Positions 5,209-43,523 of a DNA stretch of 64,000 nucleotides are shown here, piece after piece. Every line of letters starts with the position of its first letter. Position 1 is the stretch's first letter. The translations under genes and the position numbers were made by a program. The stretch comes from Candidatus Omnitrophota bacterium (GTDB taxonomy: Bacteria; Omnitrophota; Gorgyraeia; Zapsychrales; Fredricksoniimonadaceae). The notes under the pieces are model-generated. The model did no database searches. It was not told the origin of the DNA and saw only the letters and a program-made list of their open reading frames with translations. The stretch spans positions 75,364 through 139,363 of the forward strand of contig CAIOPG010000017.1 of NCBI GenBank assembly GCA_903860135.1, given 5' to 3'.

Positions 5209-6030
5209 TCAATAGAGCACCTTTAGCGCATCCGCCAATTGTTCCTTGTTGGGCGCCTTCCCGTGCCAAGCGCTTTTAAGCTCCATGAACGGGACTCCCT
5301 TGCCCTTTAACGTCTGCGCAATGACGACCGTAGGCTTCCCCTTCATCCCCTTGAAATCATTGAAAGCCTTGATCAACAGATCAAGGTCATTGCCGTCAAT
5401 ATCGATGACATTCCAGCCAAAGCTCTTCCATTTATCCGCCAGCGGCTCAAGCCCCTTGATCTCGCTGACAAGGCCGTTCTCCTGCACCTTGTTATAGTCA
5501 ACAATGGCGCAAACATTATCCAGCTTGAAATGCGCCGCGGCCATGGCCGCTTCCCAGACCGACCCTTCCTGGATCTCGCCGTCACCCATCAGGCAATACG
5601 TCTTGAAATCCTTGTTCTTCAATTTCGCCGCCATGGCCACCCCGTTGGCATACGAAAGCCCGTGGCCGAGCGACCCGGTATTGAATTCAACCCCCGGCGT
5701 CTTTTTGGTCACATGCCCCTGCAGGCGACTGCCAAATTTGCGAAATGTCTTCAATTCTTCTTTGGGGAAATAACCAAAATTGGCCAGCGTCACATAGGTG
5801 ACCGGGGAAATATGCCCTTTGGAAATCACCAAACGGTCGCGCCCGTCCCACGCCGGATCAGCCGAACGGTGATTCATCACCACCGCGTAAAGGGCCACGA
5901 ATATCTCCACGGCGGACAATGACCCGCCAGGATGCCCCGAGCCTGCGGTCTCGAGGGTTTCAAGGATCTCACGACGCATCAACAAGGCCTGTGCTTTAAG
6001 GGCACTCAGATCGTATTTCTTGTCGGACAC
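5209..6030 (-). CDS. transketolase, N-terminal (TPP-binding) subunit; start refined to GTG at 6030
   Basis: GSGHPGGSLS…GDGE motifs; GAGGAG RBS 6 nt upstream of GTG (SDKKYDLS…); the longer track ORF (to 6096) would include the predicted promoter. Confidence 0.8.
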   Translation of the reverse strand: MSDKKYDLSALKAQALLMRREILETLETAGSGHPGGSLSAVEIFVALYAVVMNHRSADPAWDGRDRLVISKGHISPVTYVTLANFGYFPKEELKTFRKFGSRLQGHVTKKTPGVEFNTGSLGHGLSYANGVAMAAKLKNKDFKTYCLMGDGEIQEGSVWEAAMAAAHFKLDNVCAIVDYNKVQENGLVSEIKGLEPLADKWKSFGWNVIDIDGNDLDLLIKAFNDFKGMKGKPTVVIAQTLKGKGVPFMELKSAWHGKAPNKEQLADALKVLY

Positions 6031-6084
6031 AAATAACTCCTCGCGCAAAATCATTCCAGAGATTGACGGATAAAAAACGGGTTG

Positions 6085-6113
6085 AGTATAGGTCAATACC
6101 CGAAGCTAGTCAA
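6085..6113 (-). promoter_or_regulatory. sigma70-like promoter TTGACT-N17-TATACT upstream of the transketolase operon
   Basis: Read on minus strand: cTTGACTagcttcgggtattgaccTATACTcaacc. Confidence 0.45.
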
Positions 6114-6282
6114 GGCACTTTCTTGATTGCCGCCTTCAGATCGGCCATGAATGCCTGGGCCGGTGTCAGACGGGCCGTGCCATCGGGCCTCCCGCCCTTG
6201 ACCGTCCCATGGCGTGCCAGGGCCGAAGCCCCTGCCTGCTTTCCCTGTTTCTTGTGCCAGAACTGCACATGCCCTTTTTTGC

Positions 6283-6475
6283 TCACCGGACAGCACTCCG
6301 GCAGAAATTCGCGATGCTCCTGTCGTAAGTCTTCTCGGCATCCTTGGGGAAAAAACACCCCGGAATAGCCCCCTTGGCGCGGTGATACCGCACACATTCA
6401 CAGCACAACCCCTTGCGCGAACAGTCATACGTACACCCGCAGTCTTGCTTGTTCCGTTCTATCAGACATTCCATA
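6283..6475 (-). CDS. small cysteine-rich (probable metal-binding) protein, 63 aa from RBS-supported ATG
   Basis: AAAGAGGTG RBS then ATG; [43 protein letters not shown]… (C-x-C-x4-C-x5-CC-x-C pattern); overlapping alternative-frame ORFs in this GC-rich stretch look spurious. Confidence 0.5.
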
Positions 6476-6528
6476 AGCACCTCTTTGATTGGCAAGTCGT
6501 TCTGTCAAAAACTTTTGCTCCTAAAAAA

Positions 6529-6559
6529 CGGCTCATGCACGCTTCGGTTTATTGCCCTG
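6529..6559 (-). repeat. island core repeat, copy A (5'-truncated), immediately 3' of RhuM gene
   Basis: cggctcatgcacgcttcggtttattgccctg matches the cores at 8212, 11367, 14276, 14415. Confidence 0.6.
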
Positions 6560-6565
6560 TCTTCT

Positions 6566-7597
6566 TCACCCTTTCAACGCTTTCTTTTTATTTTCGAGAC
6601 GTTTTATTTCACGATCAAAATCATTCTCGAATAAACGATCCTGAACAATACGGTATTTTTCAAACTCGCTTTCCGCATGTTCTTTAGCAATCTGAGACGT
6701 TATCTTCCCGCTATTTTTCAAAATATCTCTGTCAGCAACTTGCAAAAACATATCCAAGCGCATTGACCAGTCTTCCATTGTCATTGGTATCCGTCGCTGC
6801 GCCCGGTCTTCGGCTAAATCCAAATAAGCGTTAACGATACGTCCTAAAGCCACAATTTCGTCTTTACTCAAATAGTTCTTCGCCACACTCACATCAGCCT
6901 TTAATATCTTTCCGTCGGGACTTCCCTCCCATGACGTCAATCCCATGTGTTTTTTCTGGCTATCTGCCCGTCTAACAATCAATTCCGCAGCCGTATATCC
7001 GTGAATGGCAAAATGCAATTTATTTTGTATCTTCGCAAAGAATGCCTGGGTGATAGCAGCTCGAGCGTCATAATCCATGCTGGTCGAATAAATATCCGTG
7101 ATTTTCTGATAGAAACGCCGCTCACTCATGCGTATTTCACGGATTTCCTCCAACACCCGTTCGTAATAATCCTCCCCAAGAAAAGCACCGTTCTCCAACC
7201 GCTTCTTATCCAGCACATACCCCTTGATGGCGAAGTCCTTCAAAATACGGGTTGCCCACTGCCGGAATTGCGTGGCTCTCAAAGAGTTCACCCGATATCC
7301 GACGGAGATAATCATGTCCAAGTTATAAAAATTAGTTTGGTATTTCTTGCCGTCCGCGGCAGTTATTAGGGATTTCCTAAGAACTGTCTTCTCATCGACT
7401 TCTTTGCTTGAAATGACATTCTTAAGATGCTCGTTGATTGTCGGGATAGCAACATCAAACAATTCAGCCATTAATTTCTGTGTCAGCCAGATCGTTTCGT
7501 CTTCATACCGCGCCTCAATACTTTTGTCACCCGATTGACTTGTAAAGATCAGAAATTCCGCCGTGCTATTGCGTATTTGAAGATTTCTTGCTTTCAT
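6566..7597 (-). CDS. RhuM-family virulence/DNA-binding protein
   Basis: …NLDMIISVGYRVNSLRATQFRQWATRILKD… classic RhuM core; start refined to MKARNLQI (AGGAA RBS). Confidence 0.85.
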   Translation of the reverse strand: MKARNLQIRNSTAEFLIFTSQSGDKSIEARYEDETIWLTQKLMAELFDVAIPTINEHLKNVISSKEVDEKTVLRKSLITAADGKKYQTNFYNLDMIISVGYRVNSLRATQFRQWATRILKDFAIKGYVLDKKRLENGAFLGEDYYERVLEEIREIRMSERRFYQKITDIYSTSMDYDARAAITQAFFAKIQNKLHFAIHGYTAAELIVRRADSQKKHMGLTSWEGSPDGKILKADVSVAKNYLSKDEIVALGRIVNAYLDLAEDRAQRRIPMTMEDWSMRLDMFLQVADRDILKNSGKITSQIAKEHAESEFEKYRIVQDRLFENDFDREIKRLENKKKALKG

Positions 7598-7645
7598 AAA
7601 TGTCATTTCCTGTTTAGCCCCATCTGATCCAGGCACGATCCAAGT

Positions 7646-8042
7646 TTATTGCACTGTTCTCTTTGCACCCTTGGCGAGCTTTTTCCCTTCCGCATTAAGC
7701 CGATGCGCCAGCTTATTGACATCTTCCTCGGCAGGCAACAATTCCGGTTTGATCCCGCTTTTCCCCAGTAATTCCCGAACTTCCCTATTATTTTTAACGT
7801 GCTCCCCCGTAATCGATGGCTCACCTTGCAAATTATTCCACCAGCACCATACGCTCCTCAAGCAACTCCACTGGCTTAAAACACGCCGTCTTAGCCTTGT
7901 CAACAACCAGCAGAAAATTCCGCTATTCGGTGTAATCCAGAAGCCTCTGAATATCCCGCGCCCTCCAGAACTCAACACCATCCTCAACACGCGCTGACCC
8001 TTCAAAATCCTTATTCAACTGCACGATGATCTCTTGTTTCAT
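7646..8042 (-). pseudogene. dinD-like remnant (N-terminal 39 codons, internal deletion, frameshift, C-terminal 60 codons)
   Basis: N-term MKQEIIVQLNKDFEGSARVEDGVEFWRARDIQRLLDYTE* and C-term NNLQGEPSITGEHVKNNREVRELLGK…KLAKGAKRTVQ* align with the intact copy at 11421-12263; central ~500 nt absent. Confidence 0.7.
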
Positions 8043-8084
8043 CAAACATTCCTTTGTTGGTAATTATTATCAAGGGGTAAGATA

Positions 8085-8113
8085 ATAATACCACTCACGT
8101 GTGTGGCTATCAA
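8085..8113 (-). promoter_or_regulatory. dinD-type promoter TTGATA-N17-TATTAT (copy upstream of the dinD remnant)
   Basis: Near-identical to the 12306-12334 promoter. Confidence 0.4.
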
Positions 8114-8142
8114 GTTGTTTTAGGACTTTCCGGTTCTTTGAG

Positions 8143-8285
8143 AACTTGTTCTCTTTTCTTATTCTACAACTCCTCCGGTGAAGCAAAACTACACGGGGAT
8201 ATTTAGGTCAAGGCATGCCAAGGGCGACTAATGCACGCTCTGGGGTTATTGCCCTGTCCCTAGACTGGGGACTGGGGACTGTCCC
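8143..8285 (-). repeat. island repeat, copy B (extended ~143-bp form; 45-bp core at 8212-8256)
   Basis: aacttgttctcttttcttattctacaactcctccggtgaagcaaaactacacggggatatttaggtcaaGGCATGCCAAGGGCGACTAATGCACGCTCTGGGGTTATTGCCCTGtccctagactggggactggggactgtccc; ~85% identical to 14205-14344. Confidence 0.65.
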
Positions 8286-8412
8286 ATTCGCGCACTCAAC
8301 TTCTGCCTCGACTTCTTACCCGAATTACCCATAATGCCTCCCTTGGTATCATGCGGTTCTGTCAAAAGTTCTAGCTTCCAACTCGCAAAGCCCTTGTATC
8401 TAAATAGCTTGC

Positions 8413-8580
8413 TTAACTTGAGACTCCCTCCCCCGCGTCTTTGGCGTGGGGAACATCATTATTCCAAAACCTTAAAACATCAAAGCCTTGACTCTTAAGC
8501 CATTCATCTCGCTTGAGATCCTTTTGATTCTGATTATGTTGACCACCATCAACCTCTATAACTAATTTCTTATCAAAACA
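8413..8580 (-). pseudogene. DUF559 (Vsr-like PD-(D/E)xK endonuclease domain) C-terminal fragment
   Basis: Stop-bounded frame encodes …KKLVIEVDGGQHNQNQKDLKRDEWLKSQGFDVLRFWNNDVPHAKDAGEGVSS*; N-terminal half of the domain missing. Confidence 0.6.
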
Positions 8581-8612
8581 TTACCTAAACCCCCGCCCTT
8601 CGCTTAAACAAC

Positions 8613-9941
8613 CTACCTCTTGACCAGACGGTCAACATCCTCAAGCCCTAGCGCCTGCCACTCGACCTTGTACTTTGGATAACTGGCGATCAATGTCTTA
8701 GACTTGACCTTTAGCCCCGCGAGATCAATTCGGTCCTTGTTCATCTTGATCTCGGCAATGACCATGGTCTTTTTCATATCGTTCATCGCCACCAGGTCGA
8801 TCTCGTTCTGGCCATCCTTCTCCCAATACGAGCCAATGCGGTTGTACTCACCGGTCTCGGCATACAACGTCTGAAAGAACCGTTCCAGGACGCGGCCGGC
8901 ATACGTGGAATAGTCACGCCTGATAATGTCCCGGATGTACTCAAAGTTCCCGGTCTCGACCGCGGACCGGTTGCGGTAAATGAACCGGAACCAGAAGGCC
9001 AAAAAGTTGTCCGCGATCCGGTACTTCTGCGCCCTGGAGTTCGGCTTGGCGTTCACCGGCTTGTACCTCTCGATAACAGCGTAATCACGCTCCAGCCGGT
9101 CGAGGAACCCGCCGACATCCGACTCCAGGATGGACTGGATCTCCGAGCGGCCCGTCTTCCCGACAGAAATCAGCTCAAGTATGGAGAAGTACGTCCCGTA
9201 CTCTTTGCCGAACTCCTCGATCAGGAGGTTCCTGCCTTCGTTCAGGGATGGCGAGTTGGCCTCAACCGCGAAGTTCAGGATCTTCTTAAACGTGAACGCC
9301 TGATTCTCCACCAGCTGATCAATGTACTTCGGGCTTCCGCCAGTAAAAAGATAATAGTCGAACAGCACGGACGCGTTCTTTATCTTGTAGTCCCGCAGAA
9401 TGCCGGCCATGGTGCCGATCGAGAACGGCTTGATCATGAACATCCGGTCTGCCCGGTTGAACAGCGGTTCCTTGGAGCCCTCAAAGATCTTGTGCATCAG
9501 GGAATACACTGACCCGACGCAAATGACGTTCAGCTTGCTCTTGGCCTTGTTCAGGTCCCAAAGCTTCTGTATCTCGGAATAAACGGACGGGTTGATATTA
9601 TAGAACTCCTGGAACTCATCAATGATGACCGTTAACGGTTCATCCTTGGCGATCTGGAGCAAAAGTTGAAAGACATCCGGGAAGGAGCGAATGTTCCCGA
9701 TCACGGGCGCGTCCGGATACAGCCGCTTGATCTCCGCGACGTATTCCTCACAAAGCAACGCCTCAGACTTCTTGGCCACGAAAAGGTACAGGTGCTTCTT
9801 GTCCTTGGCGAACTCCAGGGACAGCAGCGTCTTCCCCACGCGCCTGCGCCCGGTCAGGACGGCCATGCGGGAGCCACCCTTTGTCTGCCCCATCAACTTG
9901 TTTAACTCTGCCAGTTCCTGCTGCCGGTCATAGAATCTCAT
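8613..9941 (-). CDS. AAA+ ATPase of the Arch_ATPase/DUF234 family
   Basis: Walker A GRRRVGKT, Walker B VIIDEFQ; C-terminal DUF234-like region; start refined to MRFYDRQQ (GGAGG RBS). Confidence 0.8.
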   Translation of the reverse strand: MRFYDRQQELAELNKLMGQTKGGSRMAVLTGRRRVGKTLLSLEFAKDKKHLYLFVAKKSEALLCEEYVAEIKRLYPDAPVIGNIRSFPDVFQLLLQIAKDEPLTVIIDEFQEFYNINPSVYSEIQKLWDLNKAKSKLNVICVGSVYSLMHKIFEGSKEPLFNRADRMFMIKPFSIGTMAGILRDYKIKNASVLFDYYLFTGGSPKYIDQLVENQAFTFKKILNFAVEANSPSLNEGRNLLIEEFGKEYGTYFSILELISVGKTGRSEIQSILESDVGGFLDRLERDYAVIERYKPVNAKPNSRAQKYRIADNFLAFWFRFIYRNRSAVETGNFEYIRDIIRRDYSTYAGRVLERFFQTLYAETGEYNRIGSYWEKDGQNEIDLVAMNDMKKTMVIAEIKMNKDRIDLAGLKVKSKTLIASYPKYKVEWQALGLEDVDRLVKR

Positions 9942-10035
9942 AATTGTAACCTCCGTTACTGTAACCAAGGTTACTATATAAAGCGTGGTTTGTCAATGGC
10001 GGGATGAACATGTTTAGCGGGACCTCTGATTGACA

Positions 10036-10080
10036 CCCTCCTCCGCGAGCGAAGCGAGTGTGGGGGCATGGGAGGGGGCG
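10036..10080. repeat. 45-bp inverted repeat, left copy (pairs with 19944-19988)
   Basis: ccctcctccgcgagcgaagcgagtgtgggggcatgggagggggcg; reverse complement of the right copy at 42/45 positions. Confidence 0.65.
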
Positions 10081-10081
10081 T

Positions 10082-10187
10082 CAAAAAAACGTAGCGGGGA
10101 CACGTACACAACGCCCGGTTTCTCTACTTTTCTATACGCTCTTCGGTTCACGTGCGTTAAATACGCAAAAGTGGGTATTGTGTCCCC
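10082..10187 (-). terminator. long GC-clamped stem-loop (GGGGACACA…TGTGTCCCC, ~75-nt loop region) followed by T7 run, downstream of the 326-aa ORF
   Basis: Minus strand: cGGGGACACAatacccac…cgttgTGTACGTGTCCCCgctacgTTTTTTTga. Confidence 0.4.
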
Positions 10188-10200
10188 GAAACGGTTCCTC

Positions 10201-11181
10201 TTACCATTTGAAACTCCTTAACAGATCATCCAGCGCAGACTGCACGCGCTCATCATGGCTATCCTTCAAAGACAGGTACACCGAGATCTTGTCAGCGCAT
10301 CCGTTCTTAGAAAAGCGGCCCGGCGAATACTTCCAGATCTCGACCTCAACCGCACCGCGGTCAGGCACCGGGATGATATGACCACGATGTTCCTGTGCCA
10401 AATGCTTCCAATCATTGTACGACACAGCCACGGTCCTGGCCTCTGGTTCATTGATCATAGACCACTTGGCCAATGCCGTGTGGCCAGCTGGGAAGGCCCT
10501 CTTAAAATTCAGGTTTGTGACATAAACGCGTTTCTTAACCGGGGTCTTCAGGTACGGCTGGACCTGATTCCAAAGCTCTTTGCGATTCATGCTAAAACGC
10601 AGACAGCGATTCTTCCCCGCCATCGTATGTTCACCGATCCCGAGCGCCGCCAGCTCATCAAAGGCACGTGTCATGGTCATGGCAGAAACCTCAAGAAACA
10701 AAGCGACTTCGGCCGGCGTGAGCGTCAACTTCTCCCCCTGATAGAGCGCATAAAGGACAAGCATCTGCGTTGCCGGCCGCAAAACTGGTCTCTTGGTACG
10801 AAGGGTCTTTAGGCACTCCTTAAGATCAATGGCCAAAAACGGAAGATACATCTGATTCCCGGGTACAACAAATGGAACCTTTTGTTCAATGAGGCGCTTG
10901 CGTTCATAGAAGTTGATCGCCTCCGCAACATAGACAACATCCATGCCGCAACGACCACGGACCTGGTCAAGCTGCTTGGCGATGACAGCCGGCGTGAGCG
11001 CGACATCCTTTTCACCTGTCATGATCAGGCACGTCCCTTTAAGCCAGTTCAGGCTGAAAAAGCGATAGCCTTCCCTTAAATAAGCTGGATAATTGGCTGC
11101 ATCGGGAAAAGGACGCACCGCGGCCTCTATTCCAAGGTTCGCCAGCAGGTATTTCTGAAGCGCTTCTACTATCTTATCCAT
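10201..11181 (-). CDS. hypothetical protein with central winged-HTH (326 aa)
   Basis: AAGGA RBS; …QMLVLYALYQGEKLTLTPAEVALFLEVSAMTMTRAFDELAALGIGEH… wHTH-like segment; no confident family assignment. Confidence 0.6.
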   Translation of the reverse strand: MDKIVEALQKYLLANLGIEAAVRPFPDAANYPAYLREGYRFFSLNWLKGTCLIMTGEKDVALTPAVIAKQLDQVRGRCGMDVVYVAEAINFYERKRLIEQKVPFVVPGNQMYLPFLAIDLKECLKTLRTKRPVLRPATQMLVLYALYQGEKLTLTPAEVALFLEVSAMTMTRAFDELAALGIGEHTMAGKNRCLRFSMNRKELWNQVQPYLKTPVKKRVYVTNLNFKRAFPAGHTALAKWSMINEPEARTVAVSYNDWKHLAQEHRGHIIPVPDRGAVEVEIWKYSPGRFSKNGCADKISVYLSLKDSHDERVQSALDDLLRSFKW

Positions 11182-11294
11182 AAATAATCCTTAACATTAC
11201 AATACAACAATAACATATGATATGATATTGTGCAAATATGATGTTAGCATAACTGGCAGCGATTAGCCTTGTAAATTATTCCACCAGCAAGAAA

Positions 11295-11360
11295 TTACGC
11301 CTCAACACGCGCCGACCCTTCAAAATCTTTATTCAACTGCACGAGGACTTCTTGTTTCAT
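11295..11360 (-). pseudogene. dinD 5' fragment (21 codons) fused directly to core repeat C
   Basis: MKQEVLVQLNKDFEGSARVEA* identical to N-terminus of the intact dinD. Confidence 0.55.
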
Positions 11361-11366
11361 CAAACA

Positions 11367-11409
11367 GGCATGCCAAGGACGGCTCATGCACGCTCCGGTT
11401 TATTGCCCC
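11367..11409 (-). repeat. island core repeat, copy C (3' of intact dinD)
   Basis: GGCATGCCAAGGACGGCTCATGCACGCTCCGGTTTATTGCCCC. Confidence 0.6.
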
Positions 11410-11420
11410 TCGCATTGCTA

Positions 11421-12263
11421 TTAGCCCCGCACTCTCTTTACACCCTTGGCGAGCTTTTTCCCTTCCGCATTAAGACGACGCGTCAGCTGCTTGACATCTT
11501 CCTCGGCAGGCAACAATTCCGGTTTGATCCCGCGTTTCCCAAGCAATTCCCGAACTTCCCTATTATTTTTAACGTGCTCCCCCGTGATCGATGGCTCACC
11601 TTGCAAATTATTCTTCTTCGTATTAAAACCTGTGATCTCAGCCGCGAGATCCTTTGCCTTGATCGTGATCGTAGGCAAGAAATCCGCCAGAGGTTTCTGA
11701 ACGGGAACCCCCATTTTCTTCTTCATTTCTAATGTCGAATTCCCGCCAAACAGCGCCTGATCACCTTGACTGCGCAACCGCGCAAAACCATCTCCATCAA
11801 CACCGTGCTCATAAACAACACCAGATAACCTAGCCTCTGTATCAGCCAGTTTCTGACGAGCCTGCAAGCGCTCTACCAACGCAATACGTTCTTCGAGCAG
11901 TTCCTGTTTGCGGGTTTGAATAGCAAAATAACTTTGGGCAAACGCAATCTGTTCTTTCCGAGGATCACCGTTCTGCGCGATTAGATAACAGGCATACCGG
12001 GTAAGCTGCATGTCCTCGACAGACCGCTGGCTACCCGACCCAAGATCAACCATTTTGTTGACGTCAACAAAATGGTCTGAAACAATCTGCCTAGACTTCA
12101 AACACGCCGTCTTAGCCTTGTCAACAACCAGCAGAAAATTCCGCCATTCCGTATAATCTAGAAGCCGCTGAATATCCCGCGCCATCCAGAACTCAACACC
12201 ATTCTCAACACGCGCCGACCCTTCAAAATCTTTATTCAACTGCACAAGGACTTCTTGTTTCAT
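11421..12263 (-). CDS. dinD: DNA-damage-inducible protein D (DinD)-like protein
   Basis: AAAGGAA RBS + ATG; MKQEVLVQLNKDFEGSARVENGVEFWMARDIQRLLDYTEWRNFLLVVDKAKTACLKS… resembles E. coli DinD family. Confidence 0.75.
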   Translation of the reverse strand: MKQEVLVQLNKDFEGSARVENGVEFWMARDIQRLLDYTEWRNFLLVVDKAKTACLKSRQIVSDHFVDVNKMVDLGSGSQRSVEDMQLTRYACYLIAQNGDPRKEQIAFAQSYFAIQTRKQELLEERIALVERLQARQKLADTEARLSGVVYEHGVDGDGFARLRSQGDQALFGGNSTLEMKKKMGVPVQKPLADFLPTITIKAKDLAAEITGFNTKKNNLQGEPSITGEHVKNNREVRELLGKRGIKPELLPAEEDVKQLTRRLNAEGKKLAKGVKRVRG

Positions 12264-12305
12264 CAAACATTCCTTTGTTGGTAATTATTATCAAGGGGCA
12301 AGATA

Positions 12306-12334
12306 ATAATACCACTCATGCGTGTGGCTATCAA
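12306..12334 (-). promoter_or_regulatory. promoter TTGATA-N17-TATTAT upstream of dinD
   Basis: Minus strand: cTTGATAgccacacgcatgagtggTATTATtatct, ~45 nt upstream of ATG. Confidence 0.45.
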
Positions 12335-12356
12335 GTTGTTTTAGAACTTTCCGGCT

Positions 12357-13437
12357 CTATAACAATATGTTCTTTGTCTCATTTTTTACAACCGCAAGTG
12401 CCCAGTAAAAGTACGCCTCAGGAAGAGCCGCTCTCAATTTTTCAAGGATTTTGTACTTCTCAGGAAAAACACGATCCTTGACCATGCTCATATCGACCTG
12501 CTTAACCATCTTCCCCGCCTTTCCCTGACGCAGAATACTGATGACATAGGCTATTCTGGCAAATGAAATCTTGATCCTATCCGGACTTAACCTGGCACGC
12601 AGATGATTAGCAACTCTGGCGTTGCCGTCATTCAAAAGTCCAATCTCTTCAAAGGCAGTGTTACCTCCACGAAGAAGTGCCTGCGAATACCGGAAAGCGA
12701 TCTCCGTAATATCATCAAAGACATCATCACTTGAATGTGCGCTATTCCTGAATCCATTTTCGACCATGACCGTATTCACAAATGATCGGCGTAACTCTTC
12801 AACATCATCGGCGACTTTGAACAGTTCGCCAAGGTCAATGATCTGCTTCATAAACTCCATGGTCCGATCCGGCACCAGCGGGATTCCCATTGTCTTCGGC
12901 GATATGGCCGTCAATTTATCGCCAAGCAGTCCCTCAACCGTAGGAACATTGACTACGCCACGCGCTCCGGCGAACGCCATGGGATTGGTGGCAATATCCT
13001 TTTGAAGCAAGCTTCCATAAGGCGCTTCTGTGAAAACCACATCCAGCAAGACATACTGCTGGATCTTGGAGAAATGCGACGTGATCGGAAATTTGAAATG
13101 CGCCTTCGGGATCGTCTTATTCTTGCGATGGCTCTCTTCAATACCTTCAAACCAATCGGAATCCGCGGCCATCTGCGTCAGCCTTTCCGACAAACCTTCT
13201 TTTTCAGAAGGCGGCAAAAGAATGTCAATGTCGATCGAGAGCCTTGCCGGTGGGAAAATATGAAGCAACAGCGATGTCCCGCCCTTGAAAACAAGATCGG
13301 GATAACTCTTCACGACCTCGCTCAACAGATTGAACGCGTAAACAGACTTTTCAAATATACCCGGATCCTTAAACCCCAGCTCATTCCTCAAGGACTCCAT
13401 CCGGTCACGATCAATGATCCGCTTTGCCATGCCCATC
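12357..13437 (-). CDS. AbiEii/AbiGii-family nucleotidyltransferase toxin (type IV TA)
   Basis: …FKGGTSLLLHIFPPARLSIDIDILLP… NTase GG(T/S)…DxD motifs; overlaps upstream AbiEi gene. Confidence 0.8.
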
Positions 13438-14187
13438 CCTCTTTGAGGTAACTTTGTCGACATATTTCAGATATGTAGCGAACGTTACCCTATCAAGTCC
13501 TTCTTTTTCAACAAGTTGTGAATATATGTCACGAAAGTACCTCCGCGCTTTGGCATACCTGACAAAATCACTGACGTTAACCCTATAAAAGTCATCAACG
13601 CTTTCTAAAAGCTCCCAGTAATCGGCATTAGCCATAGTGGCATACCTATCCTTAATGACAAACAAGTCCACCAGCATCTTTTCAAGAGCAGCTGCATGCC
13701 TTTCCCGCGGGGATTCTTTATTCAGCAGTCTGACAACGATCGGATCCCGCGTAATATCAAAGCCTTTGGGTGCTACACGGCTTGTTTTCTCGATCAACAC
13801 AAATCGGTAATCGCGCGAAATCCTGTCAAACACGGTATGAATCGCATCAAATTCCACTTCGACAAAAGTGATGTTGTGGGTCTGCTGGTGATGATAATAC
13901 GGCTGGAAAGTCAACGTGTTCCAGATGATGAAATCCAGCTCAGGATATTCCCTGGTCAGCATCTGGCGGATCTCGGCCACACGGCTCTTTTCTTCTGTCA
14001 GGGGGAATGTTTTGGCAATGTTACTATAGATCCCGCGCCCGGCAGAAAAGACAACACCCGCCTCCTTGAGCTCATGAAGATACTTCTTGGCAAGCGGCCG
14101 GGTGATCCCGGCAATCTTCACGACCTCTTCAAGGCTGAAGTAACGATGATGCACCGCATGCTCTTTGACTAAAGTTTTTTTATCCAA
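13411..14187 (-). CDS. AbiEi-family antitoxin (N-terminal wHTH), TTG start
   Basis: …FSLEEVVKIAGITRPLAKKYLHELKEAGVVFSAGRGIY…; GAAGGTGG RBS before TTG. Confidence 0.75.
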   Translation of the reverse strand: MDKKTLVKEHAVHHRYFSLEEVVKIAGITRPLAKKYLHELKEAGVVFSAGRGIYSNIAKTFPLTEEKSRVAEIRQMLTREYPELDFIIWNTLTFQPYYHHQQTHNITFVEVEFDAIHTVFDRISRDYRFVLIEKTSRVAPKGFDITRDPIVVRLLNKESPRERHAAALEKMLVDLFVIKDRYATMANADYWELLESVDDFYRVNVSDFVRYAKARRYFRDIYSQLVEKEGLDRVTFATYLKYVDKVTSKRDGHGKADH

Positions 14188-14204
14188 GGGCCACCTTCGC
14201 TGAT

Positions 14205-14344
14205 AACTTGTTCTATTTTCTCATTTTCTACAACTCCGCCGGTGAAGCAAAACTACACGGAGATATTTAGGTCAAGGGTATGCCAAGGGCGGCTAATGCA
14301 CGCTCCAGTGTTATTGCCCTGATCCTAGACTGGGGACTGTCCCC
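14205..14344 (-). repeat. island repeat, copy D1 (extended ~140-bp form; core 14276-14321)
   Basis: aacttgttctattttctcattttctacaactccgccggtgaagcaaaactacacggagatatttaggtcaaGGGTATGCCAAGGGCGGCTAATGCACGCTCCAGTGTTATTGCCCTGatcctagactggggactgtcccc. Confidence 0.65.
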
Positions 14345-14414
14345 TTCGCCTTCGCTCCCTTCTACGGAATACCCGCCTCCACGATTGGTCGGGTATGGGT
14401 GGGGGGAAATAACA

Positions 14415-14459
14415 GGCATGCCAAGGGCGGCTCATGCACGCGCCGGGATTATTGCCCTG
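14415..14459 (-). repeat. island core repeat, copy D2
   Basis: GGCATGCCAAGGGCGGCTCATGCACGCGCCGGGATTATTGCCCTG; overlaps the 3' end of the membrane-protein ORF. Confidence 0.6.
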
Positions 14460-15150
14460 TTCCCGGCGGATGGACAGTTCCAAGCACTTCTACATTCTCA
14501 ATAAAAAGAGCGATCTTATTTATCTTTCTCCTAACAAAGTTTCGACACATCGCAGAAAAAACATTTTTAGTATGTTCTCTTATTTTCCATAAGAAAATTA
14601 TAACAAGACCCCAAATAATAAAAAGAATGCAGGGCATAAAACAACTTTTAAATTCGGGATGAGTATACCCTGTAAGAATTAATAAAAACGTGAATACATT
14701 TCCTAATAAGATTGAAAAGAGCACCGCACCAAATGAATGCACTCTAGAAACCAATTCATGACTTCTTTCACGGTACTCATTTTCATTCTCTAATATCAAA
14801 AACGTTTCTAAACACCAAGAAAGTTGACTGTTTTTTGACAATTTGTCAATATTAAGAAAATCTTTTTCCAAAAGATATTCTTTCTTAATTGTCTTTAATT
14901 CATTCCTTATGCAATATCCTTCTTTGCCATCCAAGTCTTCTAAATCTCTCAATACATGCCAAGCTAAATATACTGCTTGAATAATAAAACCAATCGGAAA
15001 ACCAGCTATTAAGATTGTCAATAAATTCTTCCAGTCGCCTAATACAGTGTTCCCCTGTAAATAAATCCAGTACACGCCTACAACAAGTAAGAAGATATAC
15101 CCTGGAACAGCAATCCTAAAAAAGTCATGGCGATCGTAATTGTCACTCAT
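14449..15150 (-). CDS. AT-rich hypothetical membrane protein (4 predicted TM helices)
   Basis: 233 aa; hydrophobic segments FFRIAVPGYIFLLVVGVYWIYL, LTILIAGFPIGFIIQAVYLAW, FGAVLFSILLGNVFTFLLILTGY, CILFIIWGLVIIFLW; local A+T content much higher than flanks; C-terminal 10 codons are encoded by repeat D2. Confidence 0.5.
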   Translation of the reverse strand: MSDNYDRHDFFRIAVPGYIFLLVVGVYWIYLQGNTVLGDWKNLLTILIAGFPIGFIIQAVYLAWHVLRDLEDLDGKEGYCIRNELKTIKKEYLLEKDFLNIDKLSKNSQLSWCLETFLILENENEYRERSHELVSRVHSFGAVLFSILLGNVFTFLLILTGYTHPEFKSCFMPCILFIIWGLVIIFLWKIREHTKNVFSAMCRNFVRRKINKIALFIENVEVLGTVHPPGTGQ

Positions 15151-15387
15151 TGTAATTTCTCCAAAGTAATACCCCGTGGCATCTACTAAATTACTTTAAA
15201 ACGAATTGTGCATTAGCCGTCTTTAAACGGCGATGCCGTTCTGCAAAAAAATACGTTGTAATTCCAATGGGCCCTTCACAAGCTTACCGCCAAGGAAAAA
15301 CCTTGGTTCACCCCGAATTACCATTTCTATTAAAGAATATGGAGATACATACGCCTACTTTCTCCACTTAAACACCGACCACCTTCA

Positions 15388-16518
15388 TCACTTCATTCCA
15401 TCTGCCGTGGTCTTCCAATGGCTTCCCGGACTAGGAAGATACTCAACTCCGTTCAACACGACCGGCTTGGCCCCAGCTTGAGAAGCGCCCGGCGAAACGA
15501 TGGTATCCGCGCGAAATCTCTTTCCTTGTGGAAGAGCCACTTCTCCTCGAATTTCTTTTGCCGTAAGTCGACGACAACTGCCATCGGGTAACTCTATCCA
15601 ACTGTATGTACCACCCTCCGTCTTCTCCTTCTTTTGCTGCCAAAGAGTTCTATACTTTACCTTTGCCTTATCGCGCGCATACCAAATAAGATAGTCATGC
15701 GTGCTGCTTAATATTTCCGAGGTAAAAGCAGATGTTTTTATAAACGCAATCTGTCCGCAAAACTGTTCCCCTCCAAAAACCTCATCCATTATTTCCCGGA
15801 CATGATGTAAATTCTCGTCGCTAATCTGAACAAAACAACTGCCACTTTCAGTAAGCAAATCTCTTGCCACAATTAGCCGATCTCGCAAATATGAAAGATA
15901 TGAATGAACGCCTAATTCCCAAGTATCTCGAAACGCCTTAATTTGTTCCGGCTGTCGAACAAAGTCCTCTACCTTGTTATCTTTCACATCGCGTTTCCGT
16001 GTGCTCGCCTGCCAGTTTGAGCCAAACTTAATGCCATAAGGTGGATCAACATAAACACACTGCACCTTACCGCGCATACCCTCTTTCTCAAGAAGACTGT
16101 TCATAACAAGCAAGCTATCCCCAAGAACCATGCGGTTCTGCCAATTATCTTCGTGTTTATAAAATTCAACCGTCTTATCAAACTGCTGCTGAGTTGTGTC
16201 TCCAAAAAGAGTTAACTGAGCCTCTTCTTTCCCTCCCTGCTTTAGTCGAGCAATGATCGCTTCAGGAGCAACTTTTTCTTGCACATAAATCGGCACCGTT
16301 GACACCGCCAGCTCAACTCCCGCTTCTTTCTTCCCCGCCCAAATTAACTGCGGATCTAAAGATGGGTCGAAGTCGTAGCGCTTTTTAGCGGGCTGCTTAT
16401 CACGGGCAGATAGCTTCTCAGACTCTTCCTGAGTAGGAATGCGCTTACGCTTGTCAGTGTGCTTGTAAGAATCCACAGCTGCAGCCTCAGTTGTACGAAC
16501 TTTAAATTTTCTTGCCAT
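15388..16518 (-). CDS. mod: type III R-M methyltransferase (Mod) N-terminal portion, C-terminally truncated (no FxGxG/AdoMet motif)
   Basis: DPPY (…VYVDPPYGIKFGSNWQ…) catalytic motif present; protein ends after 376 aa inside what would be the TRD; all three downstream frames lack MTase motif I. Confidence 0.7.
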   Translation of the reverse strand: MARKFKVRTTEAAAVDSYKHTDKRKRIPTQEESEKLSARDKQPAKKRYDFDPSLDPQLIWAGKKEAGVELAVSTVPIYVQEKVAPEAIIARLKQGGKEEAQLTLFGDTTQQQFDKTVEFYKHEDNWQNRMVLGDSLLVMNSLLEKEGMRGKVQCVYVDPPYGIKFGSNWQASTRKRDVKDNKVEDFVRQPEQIKAFRDTWELGVHSYLSYLRDRLIVARDLLTESGSCFVQISDENLHHVREIMDEVFGGEQFCGQIAFIKTSAFTSEILSSTHDYLIWYARDKAKVKYRTLWQQKKEKTEGGTYSWIELPDGSCRRLTAKEIRGEVALPQGKRFRADTIVSPGASQAGAKPVVLNGVEYLPSPGSHWKTTADGMK

Positions 16519-16521
16519 AAA

Positions 16522-19488
16522 TTATTTCCCAATATTAGTGAATCCGTTAGCGATACCTGCTCGAATGAGATTTTGAGTTTCATGAATATCCTGCACCTCA
16601 AGAAGCGCCCATTGTCCGAACCGCCCGTTGTTGTTAATCGCCGGAATCCAGTACTCACGAGCAGTCTTAACTTTTATTGTCTTCTTGTCATCCTTTTTAC
16701 CCGTAACTTCCAACAGTAAATTAAGAATACCCTTGTCAGGCATTTCAAGCTTCACTAGGAAGTCCGGAACGTATTGCCTTCCGACTCCTTGATATTCATA
16801 AGGTATCGAGAACCCAAGGTTCTGATTCTTTACATATGTTAAGACTTCATTCATCTGCTCCAACTTCTTGGCAACACCTTGCTCCCACTCCTCCGTATCA
16901 GCGACAACATAGTTCACATGGCTTTTAATTGTCTCCTGCACTGGGCGCGTCGTTAAAAAGTCTACATAACGTGTTGACCCAATGGTGTCATAAGGCGCTA
17001 AGATCGGCAGAATTTTACGATCTTTCTGGCTGGAGATATTATCTGCAACTATCGCCTGATGAATCTTGGTAAGAGCTCCACGATAATATTCGCCAATAGT
17101 TAAATAGCCGATGATCATACGGTCTTTCAGCACAACATGCTTCTTAACATACTCTTCCGCAATCCTCTTAAGCTGAGGCCCAAGCCAATACTTTTCTGAA
17201 CCATCTGCATCCTTGAAGTATGTCTTCAAAAGGCCTTCCATCAAACGGATGATGACCTCACCCTCACGACGATCTTTGATCTTCTGAAGATTCTCTGTCA
17301 CACCCTCGCCGATAATACCATCGAGTTCCACCTCAGTAGGCTCGTTCTCAATAATCGTCTTAGATTCTTCTGTAAAGTTAGCAGCCAGTTTCGTTTCGTT
17401 GAGTTCATAACGATAACCCTCAACTCGCGGATAAGTGATCTCATACTTCTCGCGCTCTGGTAAAGACTTAACGCGGTGAATGACTTTAGGTTCTTGTGGC
17501 CCGGCATCCCCTTCAACACGTAAGAAACTAAACGGCACACCATAAACTTCCGCGTACTCAGGGGCAAGTAATCCTGTTGCCTCATCGATATGATAGTCAA
17601 TCCTTCGCAAAGCACGACCAACAACTTGCTCACAAAGAAGCTGCGTCGAGAAAGCGCGTACGCCTAAAATATGCGTTACCGTGTTCACATCCCAACCTTC
17701 AGTAAGCATCGACACGCTAACAACACACTTGATGCTCTCTCCCAGCTTCTCAGGTTTGCCAACGGTGTTCATGACCTCACGCAGCAACTGCTCATCCGTT
17801 GGGTCTTCTCTGCCGGGGAATCTCTTTCGATATTCTTTATGAAAATCGTCGATCTCTTTAGTGAAGATCTTTTTAAAGTCGTCATTGATCTTCTCACCGC
17901 TTTCGATCTGCGCACTATCAATCAACAGCGTGTTAGGCCGCTCAAGAAACCTGACGCCATCTTCATTACGAAAGATATCTAAATGACCCTTTTCAATCAG
18001 CAGCTTCCCACTTGGCGTCTCATGCTCAAAGCCAGCAATCCAACGGTAAACCATTTCGGAAACAGTTGTGTTGTTACAGACCACGATCATCACGGGTGGC
18101 ATAACCGCCGGATTCGTTTTTCGGTGTTTTTCATACACCGCATGATATTTTTCATAACTACCGTAAAGAGATTCTAATGCCTCTTCGAGCGTCTTCGGCA
18201 AGGCAATGGATGTTAAATCATACTGACCTGTTCGCATTCCCCTTTTCGGCAAATCATCCCGAACATGCAACCAAAGGTTACGAAATTCAGGTTCATCATC
18301 TTTCGTGATGTTGTCCGACTTCACAGGCAAGCGAGGAATCTTGACCACGCCACATTCAAGAGCATCAAGTAATGAGAAATCAGAGATCACCCAAGGGAAA
18401 AGTGTTCCTTCCTGATACCCGGAACCACGCAAGAAATACGGTGTCGCTGACAAATCAATAACCGCATTAATATTAATCTTCTGCGCCAATGCCTCTATCC
18501 CGCTAATCCACACACGGGCAGCCTCATTGTTTTCATCTGCCTCTTTGCGATCCTCCCCGGAAAGCTTGTCTTCAGTAGCTTTCTCCCGATAACAATGATG
18601 CGCCTCGTCGTTGATAACAATGATTCTTGGTTTGCTCAAAAGCCCCTTAAAAACACGATTCACCATTGCCGCCGGTGTCTCTTTAATAGCAGACTCCTTG
18701 ATTAACCCCGTGGCCTTGATGACCGCGCCTAAAGAAAACCTTGAGTTTTGCCGTAGCTCCAACTGATGGTAATTTGTGATAAAAACATGGGCCGCTTGCA
18801 ATAGCTCAAGGTCTTGATGTGACACAATATCACGCTGAGTGTAATAATTTTGAGGGTCATTCGGCAATAACACATTCAAGCGATCTCTGATCGTGATGCC
18901 TGGGGTAATCAGAACGAAAGCATCTGTAAAGCGGGTATCCATTGGGTAACGGATCTTGTTCAAAGTATTGTACGCTATGATCATTCCCATAACAACGGTT
19001 TTACCTGAGCCGGTAGCCATCTTCAAAGCAATACGATAAAGACCGGGGTTGGATTCATGCCCAGCCTTCTTCAGCTCATTAATAATCCAACTCTCGCCAC
19101 TCTTCTCTGCAACCTCATTGACGTACATCAATGTTTCAAGTGCTTCGATCTGACAAAAAAACAACTTGTTATCGCGGTTCTCATCTTTCCAGTAATAAAG
19201 CAAATCGCGGGAAGTTTTGGTCAAGCCGGGATAATCCGCGTTTCGCCACGCGCTAACCTTCGCGCGCACCTTGTTAATGAATTCGTTCTCTTGCTGCAAT
19301 TCACTCCCGTACGCACCCTCAGCAACATTCTGTTCTTCACGCTTCTTTAATGTCTTAGCTCGGGGAACTGGAATAAAGAAACTGCTTGGACGACGGGATT
19401 CAACGATTTCATTTGAGATGCCCTTTTCATCAGACTTAAAGTGCAATGCAGACACTTTATACGGCGAATTGAGTATCGAAGATTTCAT
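16522..19488 (-). CDS. res: type III restriction enzyme Res subunit (SF2 helicase + PD-(D/E)xK nuclease)
   Basis: 988 aa; TGSGKT, VINDEAHH, SATP, EGWDV helicase motifs; C-terminal …YVPDFLVKLE…LLLEVTGK nuclease motif. Confidence 0.85.
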   Translation of the reverse strand: MKSSILNSPYKVSALHFKSDEKGISNEIVESRRPSSFFIPVPRAKTLKKREEQNVAEGAYGSELQQENEFINKVRAKVSAWRNADYPGLTKTSRDLLYYWKDENRDNKLFFCQIEALETLMYVNEVAEKSGESWIINELKKAGHESNPGLYRIALKMATGSGKTVVMGMIIAYNTLNKIRYPMDTRFTDAFVLITPGITIRDRLNVLLPNDPQNYYTQRDIVSHQDLELLQAAHVFITNYHQLELRQNSRFSLGAVIKATGLIKESAIKETPAAMVNRVFKGLLSKPRIIVINDEAHHCYREKATEDKLSGEDRKEADENNEAARVWISGIEALAQKININAVIDLSATPYFLRGSGYQEGTLFPWVISDFSLLDALECGVVKIPRLPVKSDNITKDDEPEFRNLWLHVRDDLPKRGMRTGQYDLTSIALPKTLEEALESLYGSYEKYHAVYEKHRKTNPAVMPPVMIVVCNNTTVSEMVYRWIAGFEHETPSGKLLIEKGHLDIFRNEDGVRFLERPNTLLIDSAQIESGEKINDDFKKIFTKEIDDFHKEYRKRFPGREDPTDEQLLREVMNTVGKPEKLGESIKCVVSVSMLTEGWDVNTVTHILGVRAFSTQLLCEQVVGRALRRIDYHIDEATGLLAPEYAEVYGVPFSFLRVEGDAGPQEPKVIHRVKSLPEREKYEITYPRVEGYRYELNETKLAANFTEESKTIIENEPTEVELDGIIGEGVTENLQKIKDRREGEVIIRLMEGLLKTYFKDADGSEKYWLGPQLKRIAEEYVKKHVVLKDRMIIGYLTIGEYYRGALTKIHQAIVADNISSQKDRKILPILAPYDTIGSTRYVDFLTTRPVQETIKSHVNYVVADTEEWEQGVAKKLEQMNEVLTYVKNQNLGFSIPYEYQGVGRQYVPDFLVKLEMPDKGILNLLLEVTGKKDDKKTIKVKTAREYWIPAINNNGRFGQWALLEVQDIHETQNLIRAGIANGFTNIGK

Positions 19489-19534
19489 CCGTTAACTCCC
19501 TTAAAGTTTAGAATCCCACTATTCAAGAATGTGC

Positions 19535-19888
19535 TCATTTTAAGCTCTTCTTTTTCATCTTTTTAATACTATTTTCAATTCTTTCACGTTCTCTCTCAAT
19601 CATTCTTCTCTTCTTGAACTCTGTAAACGTCATTTTCTCGTCGCCCATAAAGACTTCGATTCTTTTGTTGGGTATTTTGTTTATTAAATGAGCTTCAGTA
19701 ATTTTAGAAACTTCTTCGTCAAATACAGAAATCCTTTTTCTTAAATCTGCAAACTGAACCATAATTTCATCATTGCTATATATTGAAATTATATGCCCAA
19801 GTCCAAGTTTCTTAGAATAAACTTTATCCGTTACTTTTAGATCATCAAATACTCTTAATACTGGTAATGAATCAAACATATTCTCCAC
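19535..19888 (-). CDS. AT-rich hypothetical protein (117 aa) immediately upstream of res
   Basis: ORF with Lys/Glu-rich C-terminus; no recognisable family; strongly A+T-rich relative to window. Confidence 0.4.
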   Translation of the reverse strand: MENMFDSLPVLRVFDDLKVTDKVYSKKLGLGHIISIYSNDEIMVQFADLRKRISVFDEEVSKITEAHLINKIPNKRIEVFMGDEKMTFTEFKKRRMIERERERIENSIKKMKKKSLK

Positions 19889-19943
19889 ACATCTGCTCCT
19901 AGCTTAATTCATAAAAATCGAACTACTCTATTTTGCTATATAC

Positions 19944-19988
19944 CCCGCCCCCGCCCATTCCCCCACACTCGCGTCGCTCGCGGAGGAG
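19944..19988. repeat. 45-bp inverted repeat, right copy (pairs with 10036-10080)
   Basis: cgcccccgcccattcccccacactcgcgtcgctcgcggaggaggg. Confidence 0.65.
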
Positions 19989-20191
19989 GGTTTCATTTTC
20001 AGAAATTTTTATTTTTATCTTTCGTAATACCACAACCCCGCGCCAGCGTCATAAAAAACTATTCAAACCGGAGAAAGCGGGTATTCCAAACGTCCTTGAA
20101 ATACCCTAACACCATAAGCTTCTGGCATGGAATGGTCAATCGAAAAAATCATCGACGCTCACTCTCCCCACACCGGGAATGCCCCGTCGAG

Positions 20192-20230
20192 CAAAAACCC
20201 CGCGCTTCTCCTGACGGAAAAACGCGGGGC
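20192..20230 (-). terminator. rho-independent terminator downstream of fba
   Basis: Minus strand GCCCCGCGtttttccgtcaggagaagCGCGGGGtttttgc. Confidence 0.55.
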
Positions 20231-20252
20231 TTTAAAAACTTGGTCGGTTGAA

Positions 20253-36165: not shown

Positions 36166-36262
36166 TATGAACCAACTTTTAAAGATCTGAACGAAAAACT
36201 GAAAAAAGATTATTCTATAATATCATCGTCGAAACGATAGTCAACACCAAAAAAAGAAAAAC

Positions 36263-36345
36263 AAGTCCTCTTTTCTAAAACATGGGCGGAAGAGGACTTG
36301 GCACCCCTTCGGGGTTGGCCACCCGCCCCGACCAGATCATCCTCC
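36263..36345 (-). repeat. degenerate tRNA-Leu 3'-half copy including a 38-bp perfect direct repeat of the tRNA-Leu 3' end/downstream region
   Basis: aagtcctcttttctaaaacatgggcggaagaggacttg occurs at 36263-36300 and 36374-36411; 36283-36345 retains anticodon-stem, variant variable arm, T-arm and acceptor 3' strand. Confidence 0.5.
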
Positions 36346-36393
36346 TTTTGTCGGATGAATCGGGGCTCCTTTCAAGTCCTCTTTTCTAAAACA

Positions 36394-36475
36394 TGGGCGG
36401 AAGAGGACTTGAACCTCCATCCCTTGCGGGACCAGATCCTAAGTCTGGCGCGTCTGCCAATTTCGCCATCCGCCC
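36394..36475 (-). tRNA. tRNA-Leu (TAG)
   Basis: Long variable arm, anticodon loop cuUAGga. Confidence 0.85.
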
Positions 36476-43433: not shown

Positions 43434-43523
43434 AGACGCCCCCTTAGGCACTAAAACTATATTTAATGGAATAATGACAAAAGAAAGATAGCATATATTC
43501 TTGTAAAATGCAAAATTAAAACG

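Follow-up and report, generated by a model that had tools for sequence, protein, structure and literature searches.

Contig CAIOPG010000017.1 of a Candidatus Omnitrophota bacterium (assembly GCA_903860135.1) carries, in the 64-kb stretch analysed here (contig positions 75,364 to 139,363, hereafter the window, in whose numbering all positions are given), a defence island in which a short sequence, the core, recurs between gene modules. We found that this repeat is real, local and lineage-specific, and that on the tests run it is not an integron attC site, a repetitive extragenic palindromic (REP) element, a known RNA or a terminator. The island also holds duplications, deletions and a mosaic gene fragment, and most of the core copies appear to have spread through duplication and deletion of larger DNA segments. 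As a tentative best explanation it is proposed that the core is a lineage-specific junction sequence, passively amplified in a rearranging defence island, which may serve as portable homology for the duplication, deletion and reshuffling of modules.

Six copies of the core (four full, one truncated and one degenerate) were located within 8 kb, all in one orientation, which is the sense of the minus-strand genes:

14415-14459, minus strand: core copy, subtype C (repeat search, pattern search, blastn self-comparison, nhmmer)
14277-14321, minus strand: core copy, subtype B, within extended element 1 (repeat search, pattern, blastn, nhmmer)
11367-11409, minus strand: core copy, subtype A (repeat search, pattern, blastn, nhmmer)
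8212-8256, minus strand: core copy, subtype B, within extended element 2 (repeat search, pattern, blastn, nhmmer)
about 7618-7659, minus strand: degenerate core, subtype A-like (nhmmer E=0.012, match about 7631-7659; ACAGTGCAATAA at 7646-7657)
6528-6559, minus strand: truncated core copy, subtype A (repeat search; blastn 96.7% to 11379-11408; nhmmer E=5e-8)

A preliminary description of this DNA, made from its letters, had reported the same family. Its four full cores were recovered in place by pattern, blastn and nhmmer, with one start moved from 14276 to 14277, and its 5'-truncated copy was found again; the degenerate trace that it put at about 7605-7640 is real but weak, and lies some 15 nt further to the right. 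The full cores align with one another, as had been claimed, at 85.7-91.5% pairwise identity over 43-50 nt (repeat search and sensitive blastn self-comparison). A 27-nt degenerate pattern, allowing up to three mismatches, matched only at 8212, 11367, 14277 and 14415 (expected number 0.00, from 100 shuffles); these matches are to the plus strand as written, the gene orientation of the copies being the minus strand. All copies are intergenic and on one strand, with start-to-start spacings of 138, 2910, 3155, about 560 and about 1100 nt, and they form three subtypes: A (11367, 6528 and about 7631), B (8212 and 14277) and C (14415). Their common orientation is not specific to the island, since nearly all long open reading frames (ORFs) of the window are on the minus strand, the five exceptions being two near the left end, one overlapping the gene of class II fructose-bisphosphate aldolase (FBA), one in the 23S gene and one at 59093-59449.

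The copies stand close to the ends of genes. Core 14415 contains the TAA stop of the membrane-protein gene (14449-14451; GGGCAATAA), a gene of full length in comparison with its homologues, and is followed in gene orientation by TGTTATTT. Core 11367 begins 12 nt past the dinD stop (11421-11423), and the dinD remnant, here called N, reads into the degenerate core and stops at the TAA of that core, with the RhuM start coming next at 7597. Core 6528 begins 7 nt past the RhuM stop and has retained its first 31 nt in gene orientation, the remainder being degenerate or replaced; 55 nt further on lies the DUF6485 gene, which forms the right-hand edge of the island. The preliminary description was thus right that the repeat is confined to the island, lies between gene modules and abuts truncated dinD copies, and its gene annotations (RhuM, dinD remnant, ATPase, DUF559 remnant, intact dinD and membrane protein) were correct. 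Its statement that each copy sits immediately 3' of a module is true of the position, but each sits equally immediately 5' of the next module, and the modules themselves are larger than was thought, namely AbiEi-AbiEii-dinD, MarR-like protein-ATPase-DUF559 relic, and the restriction-modification genes together with the membrane protein. Two further observations were made on the cores. An uncalled 28-codon ORF at 8246-8332 (minus) has a promoter of the TTGACA type and the ribosome-binding site AGGGAGG; it finishes with ...SLGTGQ* on the TAA in core 8212, and the membrane protein has the same final residues, GTGQ*, at core 14415. In the spacer upstream of the membrane-protein gene, at 15206-15219 (plus), 12 nt of the core centre occur in inverted form (CGGCTAATGCAC); the covariance model gives E=3 there, and the match is probably due to chance.

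Segmental duplication is seen at dinD, which is present three times:

11421-12358, minus strand: intact dinD unit, a leader with its own promoter plus the ORF
7646-8137, minus strand: dinD remnant N, a leader and then dinD with two internal deletions (mapped against the closest relative, L097)
11275-11366, minus strand: dinD fragment I, a mosaic (repeat search and blastn)

Over its first 66 nt fragment I is 98.5% identical to intact dinD and 92.5% identical to remnant N. As it is near-identical to the intact copy and yet bears the deletion joint of N, a 17-nt exact match (aaattattccaccagca) at 11274-11290 and 7831-7847, fragment I is a mosaic or a product of gene conversion. Where it meets core 11367, dinD position -6 is fused to the 3' edge of the core via a common TGTT, which is also found directly after core 14415; this junction is a microhomology deletion joint. 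Intact dinD and remnant N have the same surroundings, with the AbiEii-tail block and an extended core of type B upstream of each and a core of type A downstream; at intact dinD the complete AbiE operon sits between the extended core and the dinD unit, whose promoter (TTGATA-17-TATTAT) lies downstream of the entire extended element. By this common layout, the pairs 8212/14277 and 11367/about 7631 are parts of one duplicated segment of about 1.3 kb. A derivation of the RhuM 3' tail from the dinD 3' tail was also considered and rejected, as the alignment was not significant (112-257 of 2000 shuffles reached its score).

The extended form of the repeat points in the same direction. Two copies of it were mapped, together with the gene end that they resemble:

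14196-14360, minus strand: extended element 1, consisting of pre-core (14322-14360), core, 22-nt linker and distal block (14196-14262)
8134-8296, minus strand: extended element 2, with the composite layout of element 1
12356-12418, minus strand: genuine AbiEii 3' end, with codons for the conserved EAYFYW motif and a locus-specific tail (VKNETKNILL*)

The form that had been described as about 140 bp long does exist but is longer, the two elements being 84% identical over 166 nt (blastn). Each is a composite of pre-core, core, 22-nt linker and a distal block of about 65 nt that is homologous to the AbiEii 3' end; the local alignment scores of the distal block and the AbiEii tail were 24 and 16, against a shuffle mean of 7.6, and none of 2000 shuffles reached them. 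Since the distal block is an AbiEii 3'-end homologue, the two extended copies represent a single deletion product that was duplicated later. Of their present sites one is ahead of AbiEi, where element 1 stops 9 nt before the start codon (14187), and the other is ahead of a dinD unit, where element 2 has the DUF559 relic before it and the leader of the dinD remnant directly after it. The six copies can therefore not be counted as independent boundary markers, as had been assumed, because the extended pair is one duplicated composite and the copies at 11367 and about 7631 belong to a duplicated dinD 3' flank. Between the extended copies the core is 89% identical and the distal block 92%, so that the core is no better conserved than its duplicated flanks; as two copies have moreover decayed, selection on the core is not evident.

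No further copy of the core was detected, by profile hidden Markov model, covariance model or two half-motifs, in the 64-kb window and in 7.7 kb of left and 9.8 kb of right flank; in total 81.5 kb of the same scaffold were read, of which about 73 kb surround the 8-kb cluster. When 185,579 species genomes, the JGI metagenomes and IMG/VR were scanned by pattern, no relatives of the core came up, and an exact pattern of 21 specified bases had no match in the species genomes or JGI metagenomes. Likewise, the covariance model found nothing in 0.5 Mb that included 20-odd Omnitrophota-type loci, and plasmid and phage BLAST with the 163-nt extended form returned no match. The repeat is therefore without counterpart in the collections searched, as the preliminary description had expected. 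The 21-nt pattern did have five matches in IMG/VR, all in terminase large-subunit genes (codons for YACMSRPW); as these have nothing in common with the core beyond the searched bases they were regarded as chance, and a phage origin was rejected. A second pattern gave three JGI matches, all chance-like; a hexapeptide transferase gene accounted for one of them and a contig poor in ORFs for another.

The cargo, on the other hand, does occur without the core. The closest dinD relative, at 1305-2241 of L097, an Omnitrophota-type contig of the same lake data set, has 87.7% DNA identity exactly from 12358 to the stop codon, but its flanks are unrelated and no core lies alongside. The closest available RhuM relative (L105 9998-11012, from an Omnitrophica metagenome-assembled genome, MAG) has 86.5% DNA identity and matches only 7600-6586, that is, the ORF; it lies between CNNM and CrcB genes, again with no core. 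Because both genes are found elsewhere without it, the core belongs to the locus and not to its cargo. As a separate observation, dinD and RhuM occur as ORF-sized units of 86-88% DNA identity in unrelated contexts of other Omnitrophota, as promoter-plus-ORF units; the DinD and RhuM protein families are about 75% identical across bacterial phyla and archaea.

Taken as a passively amplified junction sequence of a rapidly rearranging island, the core would be no dedicated part of a machinery and could have arisen as follows. A few founder cores would have stood at the 3' ends of resident genes and would have been multiplied passively along with larger segments, the main one being roughly pre-core-core-AbiE-dinD-core. 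Later, deletions with microhomology joints would have shortened the products, and gene conversion would have patched them. The cores that survive would constitute short direct repeats, which the general homologous recombination of the host could use to duplicate, delete or swap modules. We infer that cores have served as crossover points in this way and that no specific recombinase was involved. Besides the duplications, the recombination tracts in AbiE of a strain variant, the lack of a recombinase in the ORFs and annotations covered, the relatives of dinD and RhuM that have no core beside them and the absence of a structural signal count in favour of this reading.

Several points weigh against this explanation. 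The edges of the core, (A)CAGGGC...GGCAT(G/A)CC and then T, are the same behind the membrane gene, behind dinD and within the extended composite, three contexts whose flanks are not related; 45 nt with the same edges in three unrelated contexts is also the respect in which the locus differs from known duplication and deletion scars, as simple duplication does not predict it. Four copies start 0-12 nt from the stop codons of unrelated genes. A length of 45 nt is short for efficient RecA-dependent exchange, a crossover product between two cores was not observed, and the inspection covered 81.5 kb of the genome. Since random end-points of duplication or deletion are not expected to give identical core edges, two rivals stay alive, an inserted small element and a cassette site.

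As the preliminary description had it, no integrase was found nearby: there was no integrase, transposase (REP-associated tyrosine transposase, RAYT, included) or other recombinase among 44 window ORFs compared with Pfam, which comprise all 11 long island ORFs and 33 of about 39 other long window ORFs, some six near the window ends lying outside the scan, and no such family appeared in the precomputed Pfam annotations of the genes in the extra flanks and of three right-end window ORFs. The MarR-like protein of 326 aa was considered as a hidden recombinase and rejected, as it has no Pfam, NCBIfam, PADLOC, PHROG or PDB match and integrase models were silent.

The first of these rivals holds that the core is a small element akin to REP sequences or miniature inverted-repeat transposable elements (MITEs), or a hairpin of the 3' untranslated region, that is, an imperfect palindrome of about 50 nt which was inserted 3' of genes or arrived with the island from a donor. 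We regard this as unlikely, and equally so the role that it would imply, the stabilisation or insulation of transcripts at the RNA level, with later copies made by segmental duplication. The core is a discrete unit with sharp ends and short terminal complementarity (ACAGGGCA...TGCCTGT), copies lie just past stop codons, and the GC content of the island is foreign. RNAalifold also gave a 14-pair consensus hairpin across the whole core in which 98% of cells are paired and all five one-sided substitutions keep G-U pairing in the mRNA sense, where the antisense would lose about 10 of 56 cells. Yet no compensatory change was seen among the four sequences, and because the structure was derived from those same four sequences the hairpin is a weak hint only. 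Folding of the cores as RNA on both strands gave z-scores of -1.6 to +0.7, a range that also contains the values obtained for DNA, so that neither improves on shuffled sequence. The terminal complementarity is merely 7-11 nt and imperfect, no target-site duplication was present in the flanks, and neither a terminator-like T run nor a transposase was found in the sequence covered. Nor is there dispersal, with no copy outside the 8-kb cluster in the 81.5 kb read and no relative in the genome, metagenome or virus pattern scans; the hundreds of scattered copies that would mark a plain REP element were not found in that sequence, and the proposal of a lineage-specific REP-like repeat gained no positive support.

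The proposal of a regulatory or small RNA element fared no better, as the structure tests were negative for a small RNA or hairpin. Rfam at gathering threshold reported only rRNA and tRNA in the window, and a permissive scan of 6000-20300 gave three chance-level matches, none at the core. No terminator-like site overlaps any core, the region having 16 such sites where 15.4 are expected. A tRNA- or tmRNA-derived attachment (att) site or a sigma-70 promoter was not found within the core. By eye, a sigma-54 promoter was rejected because the spacing of TGGCAT...TTGA is wrong, and an XerCD dif-like architecture because there are no 11-6-11 half-sites, while CRISPR, type III antitoxin and diversity-generating retroelement do not fit in spacing and partner genes. 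A plus-strand small ORF (MPRAAHARxG...), at a place where a 74-aa gene had been called, was likewise discarded, since its frame is shifted by an indel and the variation lies at first positions of codons.

The second rival is that the core is a cassette-type site for site-specific recombination, other than attC, at which a recombinase encoded elsewhere cuts at GGCATGCC^T and moves or captures defence modules, giving an array like the clusters of attC sites lacking integrases (CALIN). The arrangement does resemble one: the sites all point the same way at distances of 0.1-3.1 kb, and each stands 3' of a module with a stop codon 0-12 nt away; in CALIN terms, there are at least two same-orientation sites less than 4 kb apart, each 3' of a module. 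All full copies have an identical 3' edge with a T after it, and the TGTT found at two of them matches the joint to a secondary TGTT upstream of dinD. One interval of 93 nt between two cores is "empty", the same genes occur elsewhere without the core as integron cassettes do, and the contig breaks that flank core 14277 (see below) could reflect alternative junctions. Chromosomal integron arrays typically contain duplicated cassettes and carry toxin-antitoxin or defence genes, which we count on the same side.

Nevertheless, a cassette site is in our judgement improbable. Pairs of RYYYAAC...GTTRRRY boxes, four of which occur per strand in the 64 kb, are absent from 6000-20300 on either strand (regular expression), in keeping with the preliminary description. 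The best local candidates for attC boxes (CAATAAC ... GTTTTGC or GTTATTT) vary between copies and close no hairpin. DNA folding of 66-150-nt windows on both strands gave -8 to -17.5 kcal/mol, with z-scores of -1.55 to +0.55 against 200 dinucleotide shuffles, and the minimum-energy structures were inconsistent between core copies; on the absent boxes, together with folding no better than shuffled, an integron attC was rejected. As for other architectures, there are no inverted arms around a spacer of 6-8 bp, the only palindrome being the 8-bp GGCATGCC, which is broken in copy 14277. The truncated copies end at variable points, about 31 nt and about 33 nt, unlike the products of precise recombination, and two of the "cassettes" begin with an AbiEii relic, pointing to deletion and not capture. 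No integrase or recombinase was seen in the 81.5 kb within the coverage of the Pfam scans, and the order of genes was the same in all assemblies seen, with no evidence of excision. The suggestion that the cores are the recombination sites of a cassette-like system thus received no positive support from a recombinase, a site architecture or an excision product. In its most specific version, an undescribed non-integron cassette system of Omnitrophota in which a recombinase acting in trans cuts GGCATGCC^T(GTT) and inserts or excises single anti-phage genes and small operons directly upstream of a resident core, the idea is decidedly doubtful.

It is very unlikely that the core is an operator, bound by a DNA-binding protein of the island (MarR-like winged helix-turn-helix protein, AbiEi or the Bro-N domain of DinD) which co-regulates or silences the modules. 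Several DNA-binding proteins are indeed encoded in the island, and palindromes are present in the core (GGCATGCC) and in the distal part of the extended form (GAGAAC-TT-GTTCTC). The cores nonetheless lie at gene 3' ends, away from the mapped promoter-like sites, with the dinD promoter downstream of the extended element; the core palindrome is not conserved in copy 14277, two copies have decayed and there is no comparative support. Hardly credible, finally, is a coding relic, a fragment of an ancestral gene end copied along: of nine variable sites, six are third positions of codons and not one is a second position (binomial p about 0.04, uncorrected for frames and marginal), the frame continues into that of the AbiEii relic and two ORFs end ...GTGQ* on the core's TAA, but there is an indel of 1 nt in subtype A, the frame of the B copies is closed by stop codons two codons further upstream, no likeness to the AbiEii C-terminal region or to any family was seen, and the only outside matches are the phage terminase genes, in which the common part is merely the 21 nt searched.

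The locus in which these events would have taken place is the following:

6500-20170, minus strand: defence island of about 13.7 kb with a GC content of 0.42-0.50 (0.52-0.56 outside it), inserted between FBA, followed by its terminator, and the DUF6485 gene

An exact-protein look-up placed the window on a metagenome scaffold of 399.5 kb (ENA ERZ18667937), with window base 1 at record base 74630. FBA and its terminator end at about 20170 and DUF6485 starts at 6473. In the species-representative genome closest by FBA, a Candidatus Omnitrophota MAG (L009) with 90% amino-acid identity, DUF6485, a small Cys-rich protein, is encoded 83 nt after FBA, against 13.7 kb in the window, and this empty FBA-DUF6485 spacer contains no core-like sequence. 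The relatives of DinD, RhuM and AbiEii likewise bear Omnitrophota or Omnitrophica names. The island comprises, in order, orf117, a BPTD_3080-family restriction enzyme, a type III-like methylase, a Csx27/BA5345-like membrane protein, AbiEi/AbiEii, DinD (PDC-S13), the MarR-like protein, a DUF234 ATPase (PDC-S27), the DUF559 relic, the dinD remnant and RhuM (PDC-S05).

Independent assemblies from other samples were collinear with the window at 98.8-100% and had the same gene order in all cases seen, by which an assembly artefact is ruled out. A strain variant from another sample (L108) differed by 17 substitutions in two patches within AbiEi/AbiEii (13169-13307 and 13939-14035), one patch with 9 substitutions in 100 nt and the other with 8 in 140 nt, the cores and the remainder being identical; the patches look like tracts of homologous recombination. 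The k=31 assembly of another sample has contig ends to either side of core 14277 and also at the left edge of the island, with no shared 31-mer within the window, which hints at population heterogeneity or at unseen copies. Also in a k=31 assembly from another sample, two contigs overlap by exactly 30 nt at 20162-20191, just past the FBA terminator; here, at the left edge of the island, the assembly graph branches, which suggests the coexistence of strains with a different island or none. A contig of ENA ERZ1426525 has the MarR-like gene starting 272 nt past the upstream gene, against 239 nt in the window (region corresponding to 11181-11421), and may contain a 33-nt structural variant in the joint of core 11367 and the dinD fragment.

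Other features of the window were noted in passing. A pair of 50-nt inverted repeats at 10031-10080 and 19946-19995, 92% complementary, flanks 9.9 kb from the MarR-like gene through orf117; it is G-rich, like the leader that often precedes DUF559 genes, constitutes a second repeat family unrelated to the core, and could delimit a segment that is invertible or was transposed. A perfect 39-nt direct repeat at 36262-36300 and 36373-36411 has one copy formed by the 3' end of tRNA-Leu(tag) (36394-36475, minus) and a hairpin, with the second copy 111 nt downstream of the first, and looks like a local duplication or like the att scar that a lost integrative element left behind. An ORF of 1262 aa (39738-43526, minus), in a low-GC stretch (0.40) between tRNA-Ser and the 5S rRNA gene, had no Pfam or PHROG match.

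How single-gene defence systems such as RhuM (PDC-S05), DinD (PDC-S13) and AbiE are acquired and shuffled is poorly understood beyond integrons and mobile elements. If the cores were recombination sites, they would represent a new mechanism of gene capture in a phylum without cultured genetics, and a cassette system with its recombinase in trans would mean that defence islands can be assembled module by module with no element-borne integrase. On present evidence the case is that of one island built through repeated segmental duplication, deletion and gene conversion, and its interest is modest unless precise core-to-core recombination emerges from read-level or whole-genome data. It does illustrate that short junction repeats can mimic a cassette array, and calls for caution in attC/CALIN-style readings from layout alone.

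Compared with known systems, the locus is like integron attC arrays and CALIN in its short, clustered repeats of the same orientation, each at the 3' end of a module and near or overlapping a stop codon, in its partly duplicated toxin-antitoxin and anti-phage cargo, and in having a lineage-specific repeat while the same genes occur elsewhere without it. It is unlike them in that the core has no R''/R' boxes, folds as shuffled sequence does and is truncated at variable points, in that no IntI was found in the 81.5 kb, and in that the modules are multi-gene units of 0.5-3 kb which have promoters of their own and start with gene relics. The usual size of attC sites is 57-141 nt, and the core at 45 nt falls below this range. 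With REP elements and bacterial interspersed mosaic elements the core shares its small size (about 45 nt), GC-richness, intergenic position just after stop codons and a possible imperfect hairpin, but it has six copies in 8 kb against none in the 73 kb around, a single orientation, a statistically unsupported hairpin and no conserved GTAG-type head, and no RAYT transposase was seen in the 81.5 kb. The core unit of 45-50 nt is also below the size of known MITEs. As in stacked islands with att repeats, for example at tRNA genes, direct repeats of about 45 nt part accessory modules and one partial copy stands at the joint of island and core genome (6528-6559); here, however, no integrase was found, no copy lies in a tRNA or other target gene (the tRNAs of the window are at 36-47 kb, distant from the island) or at the edge near 20170, and the internal flanks are gene relics instead of att arms. 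The likeness to the duplication and deletion scars of defence islands and immigration control regions consists in paralogous dinD copies with their flanks, internal deletions, microhomology joints, gene-conversion mosaics and relics of neighbouring genes such as AbiEii and DUF559.

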